Shown piece by piece: positions 4,180 to 48,977 of a DNA stretch of 64,000 nt. Below the pieces are notes generated by a model, which was not told the DNA's origin, ran no database searches, and saw only the letters and a list, made by a program, of their open reading frames with translations. How positions within the stretch are numbered: position 1 is the first letter of the stretch; every line of letters starts with the position of its first letter. A program made the translations under genes and the position numbers. Location of the stretch: contig JADJPB010000014.1 in assembly GCA_016713445.1 (NCBI GenBank), positions 128,317 to 192,316 of the forward strand. Reading direction: 5' to 3'. This stretch comes from Bacteroidota bacterium. Its GTDB lineage: Bacteria; Bacteroidota; Bacteroidia; AKYH767-A; OLB10.

Positions 4180-5553
<1,374 letters not shown>

Positions 5554-7399: not shown

Positions 7400-7952
7400 T
7401 TTAATTAATTATTAATCGGACAAAAATATCCGAATTAAACAATCTTGGACATGATAATAATCATGTTATCATTTAAAGCGTTTATTAGTAGGCTGAAATG
7501 AATTAGGTGTATTTGATTTAAACATATTAGAAGCAGTATAGTTAAAGGGGATTTCGTTGTGTTGTCTTCATCTCAATTTACTTGATACTACCTAATGAAA
7601 TATTCGAAAATTATTTAAAGAATATAATGTAGTCAGAAAAGTTCAACTAAACGCCAGTTGGTTTCTTGAGAAACTTTCTAATTGCCACGAAAGAATAATT
7701 CCTTTACATGTTAAATGAAATTTCTTAGCTTTTTTGTAAGTTTCATTTTTTGAAAGTCGAAGATTTTCAAATGATTTTAGAAAGGATTTATGCAAGTATG
7801 ATTTAGGACAAGTGAAAAAAATGGTTTTGTGATGTAATATAGAATTCGCAACATTAGAAAACTTCTAAGAAGGAGCGAGAGTTCGAAGTAAAGCAGTCCC
7901 CATAGCAATCGGGGCCGCCATTATTATGAGAATTTATTCTTTAATTGATCTA

Positions 7953-8207
7953 TCAACTCTGAAATTCTTTCAAATGTTGAATGTATTTCCTGCTCTTCAT
8001 TTTTTTGATATGCATCTCAATATTCCTAGCTTGCTGAAATAGTAGATCATCAATGGAAAGATATAAAATCCAATCATCAGTTTTTTGAGTAAAAGCTGAA
8101 CTAAAGAATTTGCTGTTGTGTTGATTTAATCTTTCCGAAAGATCTAAGCAACTTCCGACATAATATCGGTCAATTTTTGAGGAATAAAGAATGTATACAG
8201 ATGCCAT
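7953..8207 (-). CDS. Small GIY-YIG nuclease family protein (copy 1)
   Basis: 84-aa ORF MASVYILYSSKIDRYYVGSCLDLSERLNQHN...ARNIEMHIKKMKSRKYI, with the GIY..YVG..R..H..E pattern of stand-alone GIY-YIG (URI-domain) proteins. Confidence 0.8.
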   Translation of the reverse strand: MASVYILYSSKIDRYYVGSCLDLSERLNQHNSKFFSSAFTQKTDDWILYLSIDDLLFQQARNIEMHIKKMKSRKYIQHLKEFQS

Positions 8208-8353
8208 TTGAAAAATGATTTATATTAAATTTAGACGAATAGTCTGCTAATTGAATAAAAGCACATGCTTTCATGCATGTGAAAAAAGAAAAACAGAGAA
8301 AGTAACACCGCTCTCGCACTGTTTCTCTCCCGATAGCTATCGGGACTGTTTCG

Positions 8354-8473
8354 TACCCGGAGCCGGAGTCGTCCCGATAGCTATCGGGACGGCATGCCAG
8401 TGAAGGCACAGGTGTTTGATCGCGAAGCTTCGCGACAGCGCGTCTACCACCCCGATAGCAATCGGGGCCGCCA
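8354..8473 (-). pseudogene. tRNA-Leu(CAA)-derived relic lacking the 5' acceptor strand, with palindromes inserted in the D-loop, anticodon stem and T-loop
   Basis: The minus strand reads TGGCGG[CCCCGATTGCTATCGGGG]TGGTAGACGCGCTG[TCGCGAAGCTTCGCGA]TCAAACACCTGTGCCTTCACTGGCATGCCG[TCCCGATAGCTATCGGGA]CGACTCCGGCTCCGGGTA. Outside the brackets it is identical to the tRNA at 10965-11047. Confidence 0.85.
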
Positions 8474-8505
8474 TTATTATGAGAATTTATTCTTTAATTG
8501 ATCTA

Positions 8506-8760
8506 TCAACCTGGAAATTCTTTCAAATGTTGAATGTATTTCCTGCTCTTCATTTTTTTGATATGCATCTCAATATTCCTAGCTTGCTGAAATAGTAGAT
8601 CATCAATGGAAAGATATAAAATCCAATCATCAGTTTTTTGAGTAAAAGCTGAACTAAAGAATTTGCTGTTGTGTTGACTTAATCTTACTGAAAGATCTAA
8701 GCAACTACCGACATAATATCGGTCAATTTTTGAGGAATAAAGAATATATACAGATGCCAT
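8506..8760 (-). CDS. Small GIY-YIG nuclease family protein (copy 2)
   Basis: 84-aa ORF, near-identical to 7953-8207. Confidence 0.8.
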   Translation of the reverse strand: MASVYILYSSKIDRYYVGSCLDLSVRLSQHNSKFFSSAFTQKTDDWILYLSIDDLLFQQARNIEMHIKKMKSRKYIQHLKEFPG

Positions 8761-8906
8761 TTGAAAAATGATTTATGTTAAACTTAGACGAATAGTCTGC
8801 TAATTGAAAAAAAGCACATGCTTTTCATGCGTGTGAAAAAAGAAAAACAGAGAAAGTAACATCGCTCTCGCACTGTTTCTCTCCCGATAGCTATCGGGAC
8901 TGGGTC

Positions 8907-10964
8907 GTACCCGGAGCCGGAGTCGTAGCGAAGCCTCGCTACGGCATGCCAGAACAGTAATAACTTATTTTTTTATTTGGTTTAAAATTAAAAGAGGGGA
9001 GTAACACCGCTCTCGCACTGTTTCTCCCTCTGTTTTGTACCCGAGCCGGAGTCGTAGCGAAGCCTCGCTACGGCATGCCAGAACAGTAATAACTTATTTT
9101 TTTATTTGATTTAAAATTAAAAGAGGGAGTAACACCGCTCTCGCACTGTTACTCGCACTGTTTTGTACCCGGAGCCGGAGATCGTAGCGAAGCCTCGCTA
9201 CGGCATGCCAGAACAGTAATATCTTATTTTTTTATTTGATTTAAAATTAAAAGAGGGAGTAACACCGCTCTCGCACTGTTTCTCCCTCTGTTTTGTACCC
9301 GGAGCCGGAGATCGTAGCGAAGCCTCGCTACGGCATGCCAGAACAGTAATATCTTATTTTTTTATTTGATTTAAAATTAAAAGAGGGAGTAACACCGCTC
9401 TCGCACTGTTTCTCCCTCTGTTTTGTACCCGGAGCCGGAGTCGTAGCGAAGCCTCGCTACGGCATGCCAGAACAGTAATAACTTATTTTTTTATTTGATT
9501 TAAAATTAAAAGAGGGAGTAACACCGCACTCGCACTGTTTCTCCTCTGTTTTGTACCCGAGGCTGGAGTCGTAGCGAAGCCTCGCTACGGCATGCCAGAA
9601 CAGTAATAACTTATTTTTTATTTGATTTAAAATTAAAAGAGGGAGTAACACCGCTCTCGCACTGTTTCTCCCTCTGTTTTGTACCCGAGCCGGAGTCGTA
9701 GCGAAGCCTCGCTACGGCATGCCAGAACAGTAATAACTTATTTTTTTATTTGATTTGGGATTAAAAGAGGGAGTAACACCGCTCTCGCACTGTTTCTCCC
9801 TCTGTTTTGTACCTGGAGCCGGAGTCGTAGCGAAGCCTCGCTACGGCATGCCAGAACAGTAATAACTTATTTTTTATTTGATTTAAAATTAAAAGAGGGA
9901 GTAACACCGCCCTCGCACTGTTTCCCCCTCTGTTTTGTACCCCGAGCCGGAGTCGTAGCGAAGCCTCGCTACGGCATGCCAGAACAGTAATAACTTATTT
10001 TTTTATTTGATTTAAAATTAAAAGAGGGAGTAACACCGCTCTCGCACTGTTTCTCCCTCTGTTTTGTACCGGAGCCGGAGTCGTAGCGAAGCCTCGCTAC
10101 GGCATGCCAGAACAGTAATAACTTATTTTTTTATTTGATTTAAAATTAAAAGAGGGAGTAACACCGCTCTCGCAATGTTTCTCCCTCTGTTTTGTACCTG
10201 AGCCGGAGTCGTAGCGAAGCCCCTCGCTACGGCATGCCAGAACAGTAATATCTTATTTTTTTATTTGATTTAAAATTAAAATAGGGAGTAACACCGCTCT
10301 CGCACTGTTTCTCCCTCTGTTTTGTACCCGGAGCCGGAGTCGTAGCGAAGCCTCGCTACGGCATGCCAGAACAGTAATAACTTATTTTTTTATTTGATTT
10401 AGATTAAAAGAGGGAGTAACACCGCTCTCGCACTGTTTCTCCCTCTGTTTTGTACCTGAGCCGGAGTCGTAGCGAAGCCTCGCTACGGCATGCCAGAACA
10501 GTAATAACTTATTTTTTATTTGATTTAAATTAAAAGAGGGAGTAACACCGCTCTCGCACTGTTTCTCCCTCTGTTTTGTACCCGGAGCCGGAGTCGTAGC
10601 GAAGCCTCGCTACGGCATGCCAGAACAGTAATAACTTATTTTTTTATTTGATTTAAAATTAAAAGAGGGAGTAACACCGCTCTCGCACTGTTTCTCCCTC
10701 TGTTTTGTACCCGGAGCCGGAGATCGTAGCGAAGCCTCGCTACGGCATGCCAGAACATTAATATCTTATTTTTTTATTTGATTTAAGATTAAAAGAGGGA
10801 GTAACACCGCTCTCGCACTGTTTCTCCCTCTGTTTTGTACCGGAGCCGGGAGATCGTAGCGAAGCCTCGCTACGGCATGCCAGAACAGTAATATCTTATT
10901 TTTTATTTGATTTTAATTAAAAGAGGGAGTAACACCGCTTCGCACTGTTTCTCCCCTCTGTTTT
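8907..10964 (-). repeat. Tandem array, 16 units of 126-130 bp, each = tRNA-Leu trailer hairpin + AT-rich spacer + tRNA-Leu 3' fragment with a palindrome in the T-loop
   Basis: The anchor 'gtac' (tRNA 3' end) recurs at 8907, 9037, 9165, 9295, 9425, 9553, 9681, 9809, 9937, 10066, 10194, 10324, 10452, 10578, 10707 and 10837. The next period is the tRNA itself (3' end 10965). Confidence 0.95.
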
Positions 10965-11047
10965 TACCCGAGCCGGAGTCGAACCGGCATGCCAGTGAAG
11001 GCACAGGTGTTTGAGACCAGCGCGTCTACCAATTCCGCCATCCGGGC
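10965..11047 (-). tRNA. tRNA-Leu, anticodon CAA (long variable arm)
   Basis: Minus strand: GCCCGGA TG GCGG AATTGGTAGA CGCG CTGGT CTCAAAC ACCTG TGCCTTCACTGGCAT GCCGG TTCGACT CCGGC TCGGGT A. The D-arm is identical to E. coli tRNA-Leu. Caveats: one U-U mismatch in the anticodon stem, and the 3' acceptor strand as sequenced is one C short (TCGGGT versus TCCGGGT in many array units, which pairs fully with G1-U72). No CCA is encoded. Confidence 0.65.
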
Positions 11048-11298
11048 ATTAACTTTAGAGGCCAAACTCTTTTTTTTAGCCATTCTTTTCCTGAACCGCT
11101 TTTAAGTTGTTTTTCTCTTTTCCTTGCTTCTGCTCTTGTTGAATAATGTTCAACTAAGATTAGATCGAAAGGTTGATAAGGTTTGGTAGTTTTTTCCTTA
11201 CCATGATTATGTTGAGATACTCTCACATCAACATTTTGTGTCAAACCTACATAAATGTAGCTTCTGATTTTACTAGATATTACATATACAAAGAACAT
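11026..11298 (-). CDS. Small GIY-YIG nuclease family protein (divergent copy 3); 3' end overlaps the tRNA-Leu gene
   Basis: 90-aa ORF MFFVYVISSKIRSYIYVGLTQNVDVRVSQHNHGK...RAEARKREKQLKSGSGKEWLKK. Its last 7 codons and TAG stop (11026-11028) lie inside tRNA positions 1-22. Confidence 0.8.
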   Translation of the reverse strand: MFFVYVISSKIRSYIYVGLTQNVDVRVSQHNHGKEKTTKPYQPFDLILVEHYSTRAEARKREKQLKSGSGKEWLKKRVWPLKLMPGWRNW

Positions 11299-11311: not shown

Positions 11312-11365
11312 AGACCAGCGCGCCTGCCTGCCGGCAGGCAGGTCTACCAATTCCGCCATCCGGGC
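11312..11365 (-). pseudogene. Duplicated 5' half of tRNA-Leu (through U33), interrupted by a 20-nt perfect palindrome
   Basis: Minus strand: GCCCGGATGGCGGAATTGGTAGA[CCTGCCTGCCGGCAGGCAGG]CGCGCTGGTCT, then AGAGTAAGGATGA-ATG (GIY-YIG start). Outside the bracket it matches the first 34 nt of the tRNA at 11014-11047. Confidence 0.85.
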
Positions 11366-11571: not shown

Positions 11572-12503
11572 ATGGCTAGGCAGGTAAAAATATTCTCCGG
11601 AACAACCTCAAAATATCTCGCAGAACAAATCGCAGATTGTTACGGCTCGCCGCTTGGCGATGTGAAAGTGGCGCGCTTTAGCGATGGTGAGTTTTCTCCG
11701 TCTTTTGATGAAAGTGTCCGAGGTTGTGACGTTTTATTATCCAAAGCACCTTTTCGCCAACTGATAATTTATTCGAATTGTTGATGTTGATTGATGCGGC
11801 TAAAGAGCATCAGCACATTACATTACAGCTGTAATTCCTTATTTTGGATATGCTCGCAGTGATCGTAAGGATAAACCAAGGGTCGCTATTGCATCTAAAA
11901 TGGTAGCTAATTTATTGGTGGCTGCAAGGTGTAACTCGTGTGATGACTATGGACCTCCATGCTCCTCAAATTCAAGGCTTTTTTGATGTTCCTGTGGATC
12001 ATATGGATGCTTCAGCCATTTTCGTCCCTTATATTAAGAGTTTGGATCTTCCTAATATGATGATTTGTGCTCCCGATATGGGTGGCGTTCATAGAGCTCG
12101 TACTTATGCTTCTTATTTTAGTGCAGATATGGCTGTAATTGATAAGCATCGTAAACGCGCAAATGAAATCGAAGGAATGCAAGTGATAGGAGATGTATCT
12201 GGTCGTGATTGTATTTTGGTTGATGATATCGTGGATACTGCAGGTACGTTGACCAAAGCCGCAAGTTTGCTGGTAGAAAAAGGCAGCAAGCGTGCGTGCT
12301 TTTGTACCCATCCCGTCTTAAGCGGAAAAGCTTATGAACGTATCGCCGATTCTAACTTGACAGAACTTGTAGTATGTGACACTATCCCGTTGATAAAACC
12401 AGGAAATAAAATTAAACAATTACCAACCGCCGCATTATTCGCAAAAGCCATTCAAAGAGTGTACTCTTACGAGTCTATTAGTTCACTTTTTGTAAAAGCA
12501 TAA
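11572..12503 (+). CDS. prs: Ribose-phosphate pyrophosphokinase (three frame switches between ~11745 and ~11935 as sequenced)
   Basis: [26 protein letters not shown].. plus ..[33 protein letters not shown]... The gap region reads [22 protein letters not shown] / [26 protein letters not shown] / [12 protein letters not shown] in shifting frames, and each shift sits at a short T or A run. Confidence 0.9.
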
Positions 12504-28255: not shown

Positions 28256-28449
28256 AGAGTCCAGAATCTAAAATTGGACACGAGGTACAATTATTTTAAT
28301 AGCCTAGATGTTTTCCAATCCTTCAACTCACCAATTTGCCATCGCGAAGCCTCGCGAAACCAATTTGCCAATTCGTATGTAAACGCTTATAGTCGACTAT
28401 AAACGTTTATCTCCCGAGTAATTAGTTCATCCTTCCCTATCCTTGCATC

Positions 28450-31282: not shown

Positions 31283-31475
31283 ATTTCGTTACATCTAATT
31301 TTCGGCCCGCATCAGCATTACGTGTATTGCAAATTGGCAAATTGGTGTATTGGTGAATTGCTGCGCTTTGTTTTCGTGATCGCGTCCATTTTTTCGAATT
31401 TTCGCATTTTCGTGCCTGCCTACCGAAGCTTGCGCCACCGCTTTAGTTTTAGCGCACGCGGTTAGCATAGGTAGG

Positions 31476-31790
31476 TTCATTCGCATTTCGCGTCAAGAGA
31501 TTTTAGTAAATTCGTAAATTCGCGTATTCGTATCGCGAAGCCTCGCGACGTACTTTCGTATCGATTCGTTCCCTATAGTTATCGGGATCGCCTTCATTTT
31601 TTTCGCATTTTCGTGTTCATTCGCATTTCGCGTCAAGAGATTTTAGTAAATTCGTAAATTCGCGTATTCGTATCGCGAAGCCTCGCGACGTACTTTCGTA
31701 TCGATTCGCTCCCAATAGCTATCGGGATCTCGTTCATTTTTTCGCATTTTCGCATTTTCGTGTTCATTCGCATTTCGCGTCTGTACGATT
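31476..31790 (+). repeat. About 2.3 tandem copies of a 137-bp unit rich in TTCG motifs, each carrying two palindromes
   Basis: gttcattcgcatttcgcgtcaagagattttagtaaattcgtaaattcgcgtattcgtatcgcgaagcctcgcgacgtactttcgtatcgattcg... recurs at 31476 and 31613, with a partial third copy from ~31762. Confidence 0.85.
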
Positions 31791-48820: not shown

Positions 48821-48889
48821 TTTTTTTGATTGTTTTTACGCAATTAATTATTTTAAATATTATTACTATCCCCGCTTTTGTGTGCTTTT

Positions 48890-48977
48890 AGCTTCTAGCT
48901 TCTGGCTTCTGGCTTCTAGCTAGCTTCTAGCTTCTAGCTTCAAGCTTCTAGCTTCTGGCTATTAGCTTCTAGCTTCT
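48890..48977. repeat. Heptanucleotide tandem repeat (AGCTTCT/GGCTTCT, about 12 units)
   Basis: agcttctagcttctggcttctggcttctagctagcttctagcttctagcttcaagcttctagcttctggctattagcttctagcttct. A partial inverted copy (gctagaagccagcagccagcagc) lies at 49063-49093. Confidence 0.9.

Follow-up and report, generated by a model that had tools for sequence, protein, structure and literature searches.

SegB is a free-standing GIY-YIG homing endonuclease encoded in the tRNA cluster of T-even phages, with the reported cleavage motif RAWTSGAAC. Ladder-like amplification of segments at a tRNA locus of phage T6 needs SegB as well as the recombination genes uvsX and uvsY, and it collapses again when selection is absent (PMC13096335). 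In fungal mitochondria, free-standing homing endonuclease open reading frames (ORFs) occur with a host gene on one side and a partial copy of the 3' end of that gene on the other, e.g. at cob and atp6 (PMC6279837). Here we analysed a 64,000-nucleotide stretch of a Bacteroidota genome (contig JADJPB010000014.1; hereafter the window) with a tandem array on the minus strand, in which 16 units composed of a tRNA-Leu 3' fragment and the trailer hairpin of the tRNA abut the intact tRNA-Leu(CAA) gene and are flanked on both sides by genes of small GIY-YIG nucleases, gene A beyond the tRNA and genes B and C at the other end. The array is rather probably a minisatellite of the variable number tandem repeat (VNTR) kind, which arose as a by-product of GIY-YIG cassettes nested in the tRNA-Leu(CAA) gene through out-of-register repair, probably stimulated by nuclease breaks.

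The locus resembles the SegB system in that a GIY-YIG gene is positioned among tRNA genes and a segment at the tRNA locus beside it is amplified head to tail with unstable copy number, as in the definition given for T6 (PMC13096335). However, the T6 amplicon comprises the full tRNA-Tyr and segB and increases tRNA dosage under selection, whereas the unit described here consists of a disrupted 3' fragment and a terminator and brings no full-length tRNA or anti-defence gene to a raised dosage. Moreover, SegB has additional DNA-binding parts whereas the proteins encoded here are bare cores of 80-94 amino acids (aa), the locus lies in a bacterial chromosome and not in a phage, and the installation of palindromes is not described for SegB. 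The mitochondrial ORFs are alike in their position at a conserved gene, of which an intact copy is kept while a displaced partial duplicate lies beyond the ORF; in contrast, their targets are protein genes and their hosts organelles. The Allomyces atp6 gene is a further case of an endonuclease ORF with a partial host-gene duplicate, and GC-rich palindromic elements co-exist in such mitochondrial genomes; to our knowledge, neither a precise replacement of 3 nucleotides (nt) by an 18-nt palindrome nor ORF-less tandem arrays of fragments accompany the mitochondrial ORFs. Free-standing homing endonuclease genes are recognised by an ORF in or beside a conserved gene and by presence/absence polymorphism, and both features were observed, cassette B being absent from the syntenic locus L089. 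Text searches of the literature yielded no description of the nuclease-tRNA-palindrome arrangement and the palindrome string in no relevant paper, which is not proof of novelty. None of the closest known cases, i.e. SegB-type amplification, the mitochondrial ORFs, tRNA-targeting integrative elements and REP-like palindromes, combines a bare nuclease core, duplication of the target part at RNA genes and the precise 3-nt to 18-nt replacement. The original prediction, made from the sequence alone, had known of no described system with the architecture of the array; this agrees with the searched literature, whereas the architecture itself recurs at other loci (L025, L028, L041, L049 and L089).

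Structure and copy number of the array

Tandem Repeats Finder placed the repeat at positions 8907-10981 of the window with a period of 128, 16.1 copies, 95% matches and a score of 3754, and splitting of the array on CTGGCATGCC gave 16 palindrome-bearing 3' fragments and the true tRNA, with units of 127-130 bp. Read on the minus strand, each unit begins with the tRNA trailer, CAAAACAG-AGAGGGAG...GAGA...CTCCCTCT-TTTTAATTTT, a long terminator-like hairpin with a GNRA apex, continues with an AT-rich spacer of 41 nt and ends with CTGGCATGCCG-[TAGCGAGGCTTCGCTA]-CGACTCCGGCTCCGGGTA, the tRNA-Leu 3' fragment from the variable arm to the discriminator base. Compared with the intact tRNA, the 16-nt palindrome TAGCGAGGCTTCGCTA stands in place of GTT in the T-arm, and of the tRNA only positions ~47 to the end are held in the units, from which the 5' two-thirds and the T-loop are absent. 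The 16-unit anatomy is thus the one that had been described from the sequence. The trailer 24-mer occurs 17 times against 0 occurrences expected, which excludes chance. As had been proposed, the array is neither CRISPR (clustered regularly interspaced short palindromic repeats) nor explained by an ORF: the entire 128-bp period repeats without unique spacers, and no cas-like domains were found among the neighbouring genes scanned. The spacer was also considered as an ORF remnant; this was rejected, as the alignment of the unit with cassette B shows homology in the hairpin and the tRNA fragment only.

A single unit folds as two stable hairpins (z = -3.5) and the array is placed precisely between tRNA and cassette B, features that would suit a functional RNA or DNA element, either a decoy for some factor that binds or cleaves tRNA, or a multi-terminator insulator that separates the nuclease genes from the tRNA. 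We consider such a function highly improbable. Transcription from the tRNA promoter should end at the first terminator-like hairpin, a promoter-like site was looked for within the units and none was found, and both the T-loop and the entire 5' part of the tRNA are missing. ARAGORN and Rfam called one tRNA only, the intact tRNA-Leu(CAA), and none in the units; in gathering and permissive modes Rfam gave no match besides tRNA, apart from chance-level matches of the unit to plastid hairpins of the 3' untranslated region (23-25 bits against gathering scores of 48-56). Furthermore, the array is absent from a ~99%-identical strain (L095), and only a single unit is present in relatives. The decoy or structured-RNA idea of the original prediction thereby gained no support, and in the Rfam search with one unit, which it had put forward as a check, only tRNA passed. 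Given the terminator-like hairpin at the head of each unit and the absence of the 5' two-thirds of the tRNA, the array, judged from its sequence, probably has no function of its own and is a neutral by-product.

The window was compared with four independent short-read contigs (L095-L098), which agree with each other and differ from it at three indels, two of them in base runs: an additional A at 11070, through which ORF A wrongly runs on into the tRNA, a C missing at 10969 within the tRNA acceptor stem, where L095-L098 all read CCGGCTCCGGGTA, and a C missing at 10964. The missing C at 10969 is probably a sequencing error. In addition, prs is split (11572-12503), and ORFs B (8478-8760) and C (7925-8207) are frameshifted in comparison with their 94-aa homologues, again probably through sequencing error, which is not proven. 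These indels and frameshifted genes identify the window as an unpolished, error-prone long-read consensus, in which pseudogenes seen elsewhere may be artefactual as well. The same observations would speak for an assembly artefact, in which the long-read assembler inflated one or two units to 16. Such an artefact is scarcely credible, however, since long reads easily cover an array of 2 kb, other long-read assemblies (L041, L049) contain similar arrays, and two variants shared with relatives show an orderly arrangement along the array, which is not expected of pure stutter.

Among the 15 full units compared, 32 substitutions and 18 indel columns were counted, concentrated at CTCCGGGTA and in A/T runs, so that most of the private changes of single units are probably sequencing errors. 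The variation between units had originally been taken as an argument against assembly stutter; this does not hold for the private changes, whereas the two shared variants are real. The GATCT variant is carried by four array units and by the pseudo-tRNA of the metagenomic relatives L086 and L088, which marks it as a real polymorphism. The AAGATATT variant was found in four unit spacers and the trailer of the true tRNA, and also in L003; four of the five AAGATATT spacers directly precede a GATCT fragment. The resulting variant block a-G-a-G-t-A-t-A is identical at units 1-4 and 13-16. The presence of one block at both ends of the array points to duplication of a multi-unit block inside the array and not to stepwise addition at one end, and the internal structure that had been suspected is thus seen as higher-order blocks.

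The copy number of the unit differs among close relatives. L095, which shares 98.8% identity with the window over 565 bp, has 0 units, the tRNA being joined directly to a palindrome-trailer-GIY-YIG cassette. In L002, the tRNA is followed by exactly one unit and then by another pseudo-tRNA and gene B, in L003 a single unit lies on the far side of an AbiE gene pair, and the long-read metagenome-assembled genome (MAG) L008, 83-93% identical to the window across aligned blocks, has no unit. In L004, L086 and L088, the tRNA is followed by the trailer, gene B and a full pseudo-tRNA with four palindromes; pseudo-tRNAs homologous to that of the window were found after the nuclease gene in L004, L008, L086 and L088, which also carry a palindrome of the same type as that of the window's 5' fragment at tRNA position 24. 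The T-arm palindrome in L086 and L088 is TAGCGAGGCTTCGCTA, followed by the GATCT variant, and this combination from the array recurs in the pseudo-tRNA after the GIY-YIG gene in L002 as well. The steps preserved in the syntenic relatives identify the unit as a piece of the cassette left-over, i.e. of the displaced gene fragment, with a copy number of 0, 1 or 16 among close relatives, and the relatives with 0 (L095) or one unit (L002, L003) show that the array is young and variable. A metagenome scan for the palindrome of the unit returned two syntenic contigs without the array and one chance match in a high-GC contig.

Gene A also varies: it is intact in the window and degenerate in L007 and L008. 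The syntenic L089 comprises pth-rplY-prs, stacked 5' fragments of the tRNA that bear D-loop hairpins, gene A and the intact tRNA with its own terminator, without a B cassette, and the 5' fragment of the window, with the same palindrome, precedes ORF A in L095, L096, L097 and L098 as it does in L089. The stack in L089 (2763-3330) consists of four tRNA-Leu 5' fragments around gene A, two of which carry longer and different D-loop hairpins, e.g. TCTCGTCACATCAAAACAAGTTTGATGCGACGAGA; thus more than one hairpin family can occupy one tRNA position. In L096 and L097, the gene-A cassette with the tRNA is 99.3-99.5% identical to that of the window and has another downstream flank and a tandem upstream copy, possibly as a second locus of the same genome. 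As a separate observation, the copy of the unit in a relative (L003 2601-2741, L002 10483-12208) lies between an AbiEii/AbiEi pair and a gene with an AEP-TOTE primase-type domain; the tRNA-Leu locus may also collect defence or mobile genes.

The single unit of L003 is 97% identical, lies ~2.2 kb from the GIY-YIG gene and is bounded by GGTAC on both sides. Together with the different context of the gene-A cassettes in L096 and L097 and the ORF-less units of L025, which share their ends with ORF cassettes, it would agree with a non-autonomous mobile module, i.e. ORF-less mini-cassettes mobilised in trans by the GIY-YIG nucleases, with ~16 insertions that each regenerated the tRNA 3' end. We regard serial insertion of this kind as improbable, given that the four-unit variant block at both ends fits block duplication better and that no unit was seen at an unrelated genomic site, the metagenome palindrome scan having given syntenic loci and the chance match only.

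Direct repeats of the tRNA 3' part are also a hallmark of integrase-type elements such as phages and integrative and conjugative elements (ICEs), and the position of the L003 unit between the AbiE genes and the primase-type gene would be in keeping with a stack of att-site scars from repeated integration and excision at the tRNA-Leu 3' end. Such elements resemble our loci in that a replacement tRNA part keeps the gene intact, the displaced fragment remains at the far end and copies stack. They differ, however, in cargo, which is here one ~90-aa nuclease gene or nothing, and in the fragments, which are here 5' or 3' parts with various start positions, interrupted by palindromes. Among the genes scanned against Pfam to both sides of the locus, there was no integrase or recombinase, only ~80 bp of the tRNA's own trailer lies between the repeats, and the repeats are disrupted by palindromes and do not match the tRNA; thus neither the adjacent recombinase nor the repeats identical to the tRNA 3' part that define an integrase island are present. 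We attach negligible weight to such scars.

GIY-YIG cassettes and their palindromes

With a profile of gene B, 414 relatives were obtained among species-representative genomes, and 79 loci across Bacteroidota were examined. At 44 of the 79 loci, a tRNA gene on the same strand lies at most 600 bp upstream, typically at ~50 bp and mostly for Leu-CAA, Leu-TAA or Leu-GAG, and at 21 loci a same-strand tRNA or transfer-messenger RNA (tmRNA) gene lies at most 600 bp downstream, which makes 65 instances when both sides are counted. The tmRNA genes account for eight of the 21 downstream cases, and six of these start 4-17 nt past the stop codon. The co-occurrence with GIY-YIG genes that had been suggested for testing is therefore strongly positive. 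The cassettes lie inside or next to structured-RNA genes (tRNA-Leu, tRNA-Val, tRNA-Asn and tmRNA), and always with a duplicated part of the target, so that one gene is intact and a left-over fragment lies across the ORF. The nuclease family comprises 705 clusters at 50% identity (E <= 1e-10), whose members bear no annotation beyond "GIY-YIG nuclease family protein".

Membership in the GIY-YIG superfamily follows from PF01541 scores of 64.7 (A), 32.9 (B) and 35.2 bits (C) at a cut-off of 22.6, and the catalytic residues Y5, Y16, G18, R26, H30 and E64 are invariant. The product of gene A is 100% identical to the 80-aa protein P0107 and that of gene B 98% identical to the 94-aa protein P0001. The AlphaFold2 model of the 94-aa protein (predicted local distance difference test, pLDDT, 93) consists of a bare GIY-YIG core without an extra DNA-binding domain, and the nearest structures were UPF0213 protein BH0048 (1zg2) and Slx1, followed by the I-TevI catalytic domain and UvrC, with weak Foldseek E-values of 6e-3 to 0.1. 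Slx1, which cuts branched and stem-loop DNA, and the YhbQ-like UPF0213 proteins share the bare core, but they serve in housekeeping repair and are linked neither to tRNA genes nor to a cognate palindrome. A phage origin of the nuclease was considered and rejected, since P0001 matched none of 50,697 phage records in tblastn.

Tandem duplication is common at the loci of this family. Whole cassettes are repeated in 2-2.6 copies at L028, L029, L038, L041, L053 and L075, and in the long-read MAG L049 (3411-5702) six ~99%-identical 376-bp cassettes lie directly upstream of an intact tmRNA gene, each with a tmRNA 5' fragment, in which a palindrome replaces AGT, followed by a GIY-YIG ORF. Independent ORF-less arrays that share the design of the one in the window were found in L041, where a tRNA-Gly gene is followed by three 63-bp units of trailer and palindrome-bearing 3' fragment, in L025 (2.4 x 130 bp) and in L028, where the repeated segments (2 x 50 bp) are 5' fragments.

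In the left-over gene fragments, exactly 3 nt are replaced by the 18-nt palindrome NNCCGATAGCTATCGGNN, of which lineage-specific variants exist. Comparison of the left-over with the intact gene of the same locus showed that the replacing 18-mer consists of a 14-nt core and two complementary pairs. The replaced triplets include AGT, AAT, GTT, ACT, TTT and GTA, and the replacement sites are D-loops, T-loops, an anticodon loop and several tmRNA positions, with at least eight target contexts. The core CCGATAGCTATCGG occurs 98 times in 59 of 85 loci (L001-L085), and up to 600 bp from the ORF, matches to a relaxed core pattern have a density of 1.13 per kb, compared with 0.029 per kb farther away, a 38-fold difference. 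In the 99-aa forms of the nuclease, the stop codon lies inside the palindrome. Short GC-rich palindromes at many sites of an AT-rich genome, sometimes nested in hairpins, also occur as repetitive extragenic palindromes (REP), bacterial interspersed mosaic elements (BIME) and mitochondrial GC clusters. The palindrome described here differs from REP/BIME in its length of 18 nt, in a 14-nt core conserved across the phylum and in phage contigs, in the replacement of exactly 3 nt and in its 38-fold concentration around one nuclease gene family, and no transposase of the REP-associated tyrosine transposase (RAYT) type was seen.

The palindrome was also found in 51 stretches of viral contigs, sometimes inside terminators or the D-loop of a phage tRNA, and no ORF of family A or B was present in the DNA fetched around these matches. 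The link to the nuclease is thus strong in genomes and not exclusive, and the occurrence in phage contigs without a nuclease nearby would mean that independent spread is also possible. In seven viral contigs (L102, L105, L113, L114, L128, L132 and L147), the 18-nt palindrome lies within one arm of the GC-rich inverted repeat CCCCTCTCC-NNNN-GGAGAGGGG, which suggests insertion into other inverted repeats and hence nested palindromic elements in phage-like contigs, and in L103 and L126 it takes the place of the D-loop in a tRNA-like sequence. The idea that the palindromes are always nested in the apex of a larger hairpin found modest support only: flanking inverted repeats of at least 5 nt accompany 28-29% of palindromes compared with 13-17% of controls, and immediate extension past 18 nt is rare.

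A wider and more tentative reading, which we consider possible at somewhat less than even confidence, is that the array is one footprint of an undescribed selfish element of Bacteroidota, in which a bare Slx1/UPF0213-like GIY-YIG nuclease of ~80-95 aa with a cognate palindrome invades structured-RNA genes. The nuclease would carry a replacement copy of the target part, so that only the RNA gene would be needed as homology on both sides, the displaced fragment would receive the cognate 18-nt palindrome at the cost of exactly 3 nt, and repeated cutting of the regenerated intact gene would yield stacks and arrays of palindrome-tagged fragments. The palindrome may destroy the nuclease target in the left-over fragment, may split the homology into blocks of 30 nt or less and thereby shield the cassette from deletion, or may form a hairpin or cruciform substrate for a structure-specific nuclease. 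If such an element exists, the tiny GIY-YIG genes of this large family may represent mobile cassettes that colonise essential RNA genes without splicing, by target duplication, and tRNA and tmRNA loci would have been reshaped across a major phylum. This would represent a third way for endonuclease genes to reside in essential genes, beside introns and inteins and beside intergenic free-standing genes. As a molecular signature, the precise exchange of 3 nt for an 18-nt palindrome is sharp, and we can name no mechanism for it. In practice, such loci give rise to pseudo-tRNA calls and to collapsed or inflated repeats in assemblies, and provide hypervariable markers beside tRNA genes. The array alone is of modest interest, being probably a neutral by-product, and it is the surrounding system that deserves attention.

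Possible origin of the array

The unit of the array consists of the tRNA 3' part with the T-arm palindrome, the tRNA's own terminator and a spacer, and is on these grounds an ORF-less left-over. In the reading that we favour for the array itself, namely out-of-register repair at nested cassettes, the tRNA 3' end and the left-over fragment would act as direct repeats, and a break in or near the intact gene could be repaired from the sister copy by the homology of the RNA gene alone on both sides. Repair out of register would add or remove units, and unequal exchange or synthesis-dependent strand annealing could each change the unit number. The breaks would probably be supplied by the GIY-YIG nucleases encoded on both sides, by analogy with SegB in phage T6, where nuclease-made breaks acting together with homologous recombination were demonstrated experimentally. 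The other strand of the SegB motif, GTTCSAWTY, appears to resemble the T-arm box, in which the palindromes at the studied loci often replace bases. As the units contain no functional tRNA or gene, unlike those of T6, we regard the array as a by-product. Among the explanations offered by the original prediction, a scar of nuclease cutting and repair at the tRNA locus was the option closest to the comparative evidence, and its interpretation is to that extent supported in part.

Several points weigh against this explanation. We infer the role of the nucleases in the breaks solely from their position and from precedent, in contrast to the T6 amplicons neither a nuclease gene nor a full tRNA is part of the units, and the window shows frameshifts in ORFs B and C. 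The installation of the palindromes is left unexplained. The copy number of the array comes from a single error-prone assembly, and the relatives with 0 or one unit are mostly short-read contigs, which can collapse arrays; the direct junction of tRNA and cassette in L095, however, is not a product of array collapse, and L008 is a long-read assembly. Furthermore, RecA-dependent unequal crossing-over between 128-bp repeats requires no nuclease. The last point leads to a plain neutral minisatellite, in which slippage or unequal crossing-over expanded adjacent copies of the tRNA 3' end and trailer without involvement of the nucleases. The near-identical 128-bp direct repeats, the higher-order variant blocks, which fit unequal exchange, and the copy number of 0, 1 or 16 among relatives are all compatible with such an expansion, and no sequence feature demands a nuclease. 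Yet tandem duplication was found at the B/C pair of the window and at L025, L028, L029, L038, L041, L049, L053 and L075 among the 79 loci, more than would be expected of ordinary intergenic DNA, and the SegB amplification in the comparable setting of T6 is nuclease-dependent, so that we consider an origin without the nucleases rather unlikely.

Layout of the locus and further repeats in the window

On the minus strand, the composite locus reads in the order prs, tRNA 5' fragment, gene A, tRNA, 16 units, cassette B with pseudo-tRNA, cassette C and the start of a truncated pseudo-tRNA. The derived trailer upstream of gene B corresponds to a trailer of the array type in which AGG is replaced by the 18-nt palindrome, ACAG-AGG-GAGAAACAG in the units versus ACAG-[palindrome]-GAGAAACAG. 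The neighbouring genes are housekeeping genes (pth, rplY, aspS, PorZ and cytochrome oxidase).

Features of the composite locus, with positions in the window in minus-strand order.
Feature	Position	Strand	Remarks
tRNA-Leu 5' left-over fragment (positions 1-33)	11312..11365	-	stops in the anticodon loop, directly upstream of GIY-YIG A
20-nt perfect palindrome CCTGCCTGCCGGCAGGCAGG	11323..11342	.	pure insertion after tRNA position 24 of the 5' fragment
GIY-YIG nuclease gene A	11026..11298	-	true product 80 aa, stop at ~11055; Pfam GIY-YIG E = 1e-17
Intact tRNA-Leu(CAA)	10964..11048	-	ARAGORN; Rfam tRNA 38.3 bits
Tandem array	8907..10963	-	16 head-to-tail units, abutting tRNA-Leu(CAA)
Palindrome TCCCGATAGCTATCGGGA (8882-8899), then derived trailer hairpin	8845..8899	-	upstream of GIY-YIG B
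GIY-YIG nuclease gene B, 94-aa family	8506..8760	-	1-nt deletion in the window truncates to 84 aa; Pfam GIY-YIG
Left-over pseudo-tRNA-Leu (positions 7 to end)	8354..8474	-	three palindromes, 3 nt replaced by each
Palindromes of the pseudo-tRNA-Leu	8450-8467, 8420-8435, 8372-8389		D-loop, anticodon arm and T-arm, respectively
Second palindrome copy (8328-8345) and derived trailer hairpin	8290..8345	-	upstream of GIY-YIG C
GIY-YIG nuclease gene C	7953..8207	-	tandem paralogue of B, cassette period ~553 bp, frameshifted in the window
Truncated left-over tRNA start, ATGGCGG and degenerate D-loop palindrome	7897..7921	-	after gene C, end of the composite locus

Outside the composite locus, a beta-eliminating lyase (tryptophanase-like) gene at 4180-5514 is broken into two or more ORFs (158 aa and 151 aa), as a pseudogene or through sequencing error. 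An intergenic palindrome, TCGCGAAGCCTCGCGA, is located at 28342-28357 with the direct repeat CCAATTTGCCA on both flanks, which is either a target duplication or a local motif. A second intergenic tandem repeat (140 bp x 2.1, 92% match) at 31475-31781 contains the palindromes ATCGCGAAGCCTCGCGAC and TCCC(T/A)ATAG(T/C)TATCGGGA, with no GIY-YIG ORF or tRNA nearby. Finally, the heptamer GCTTCTA is repeated 13.9 times with 81% match at 48884-48977.

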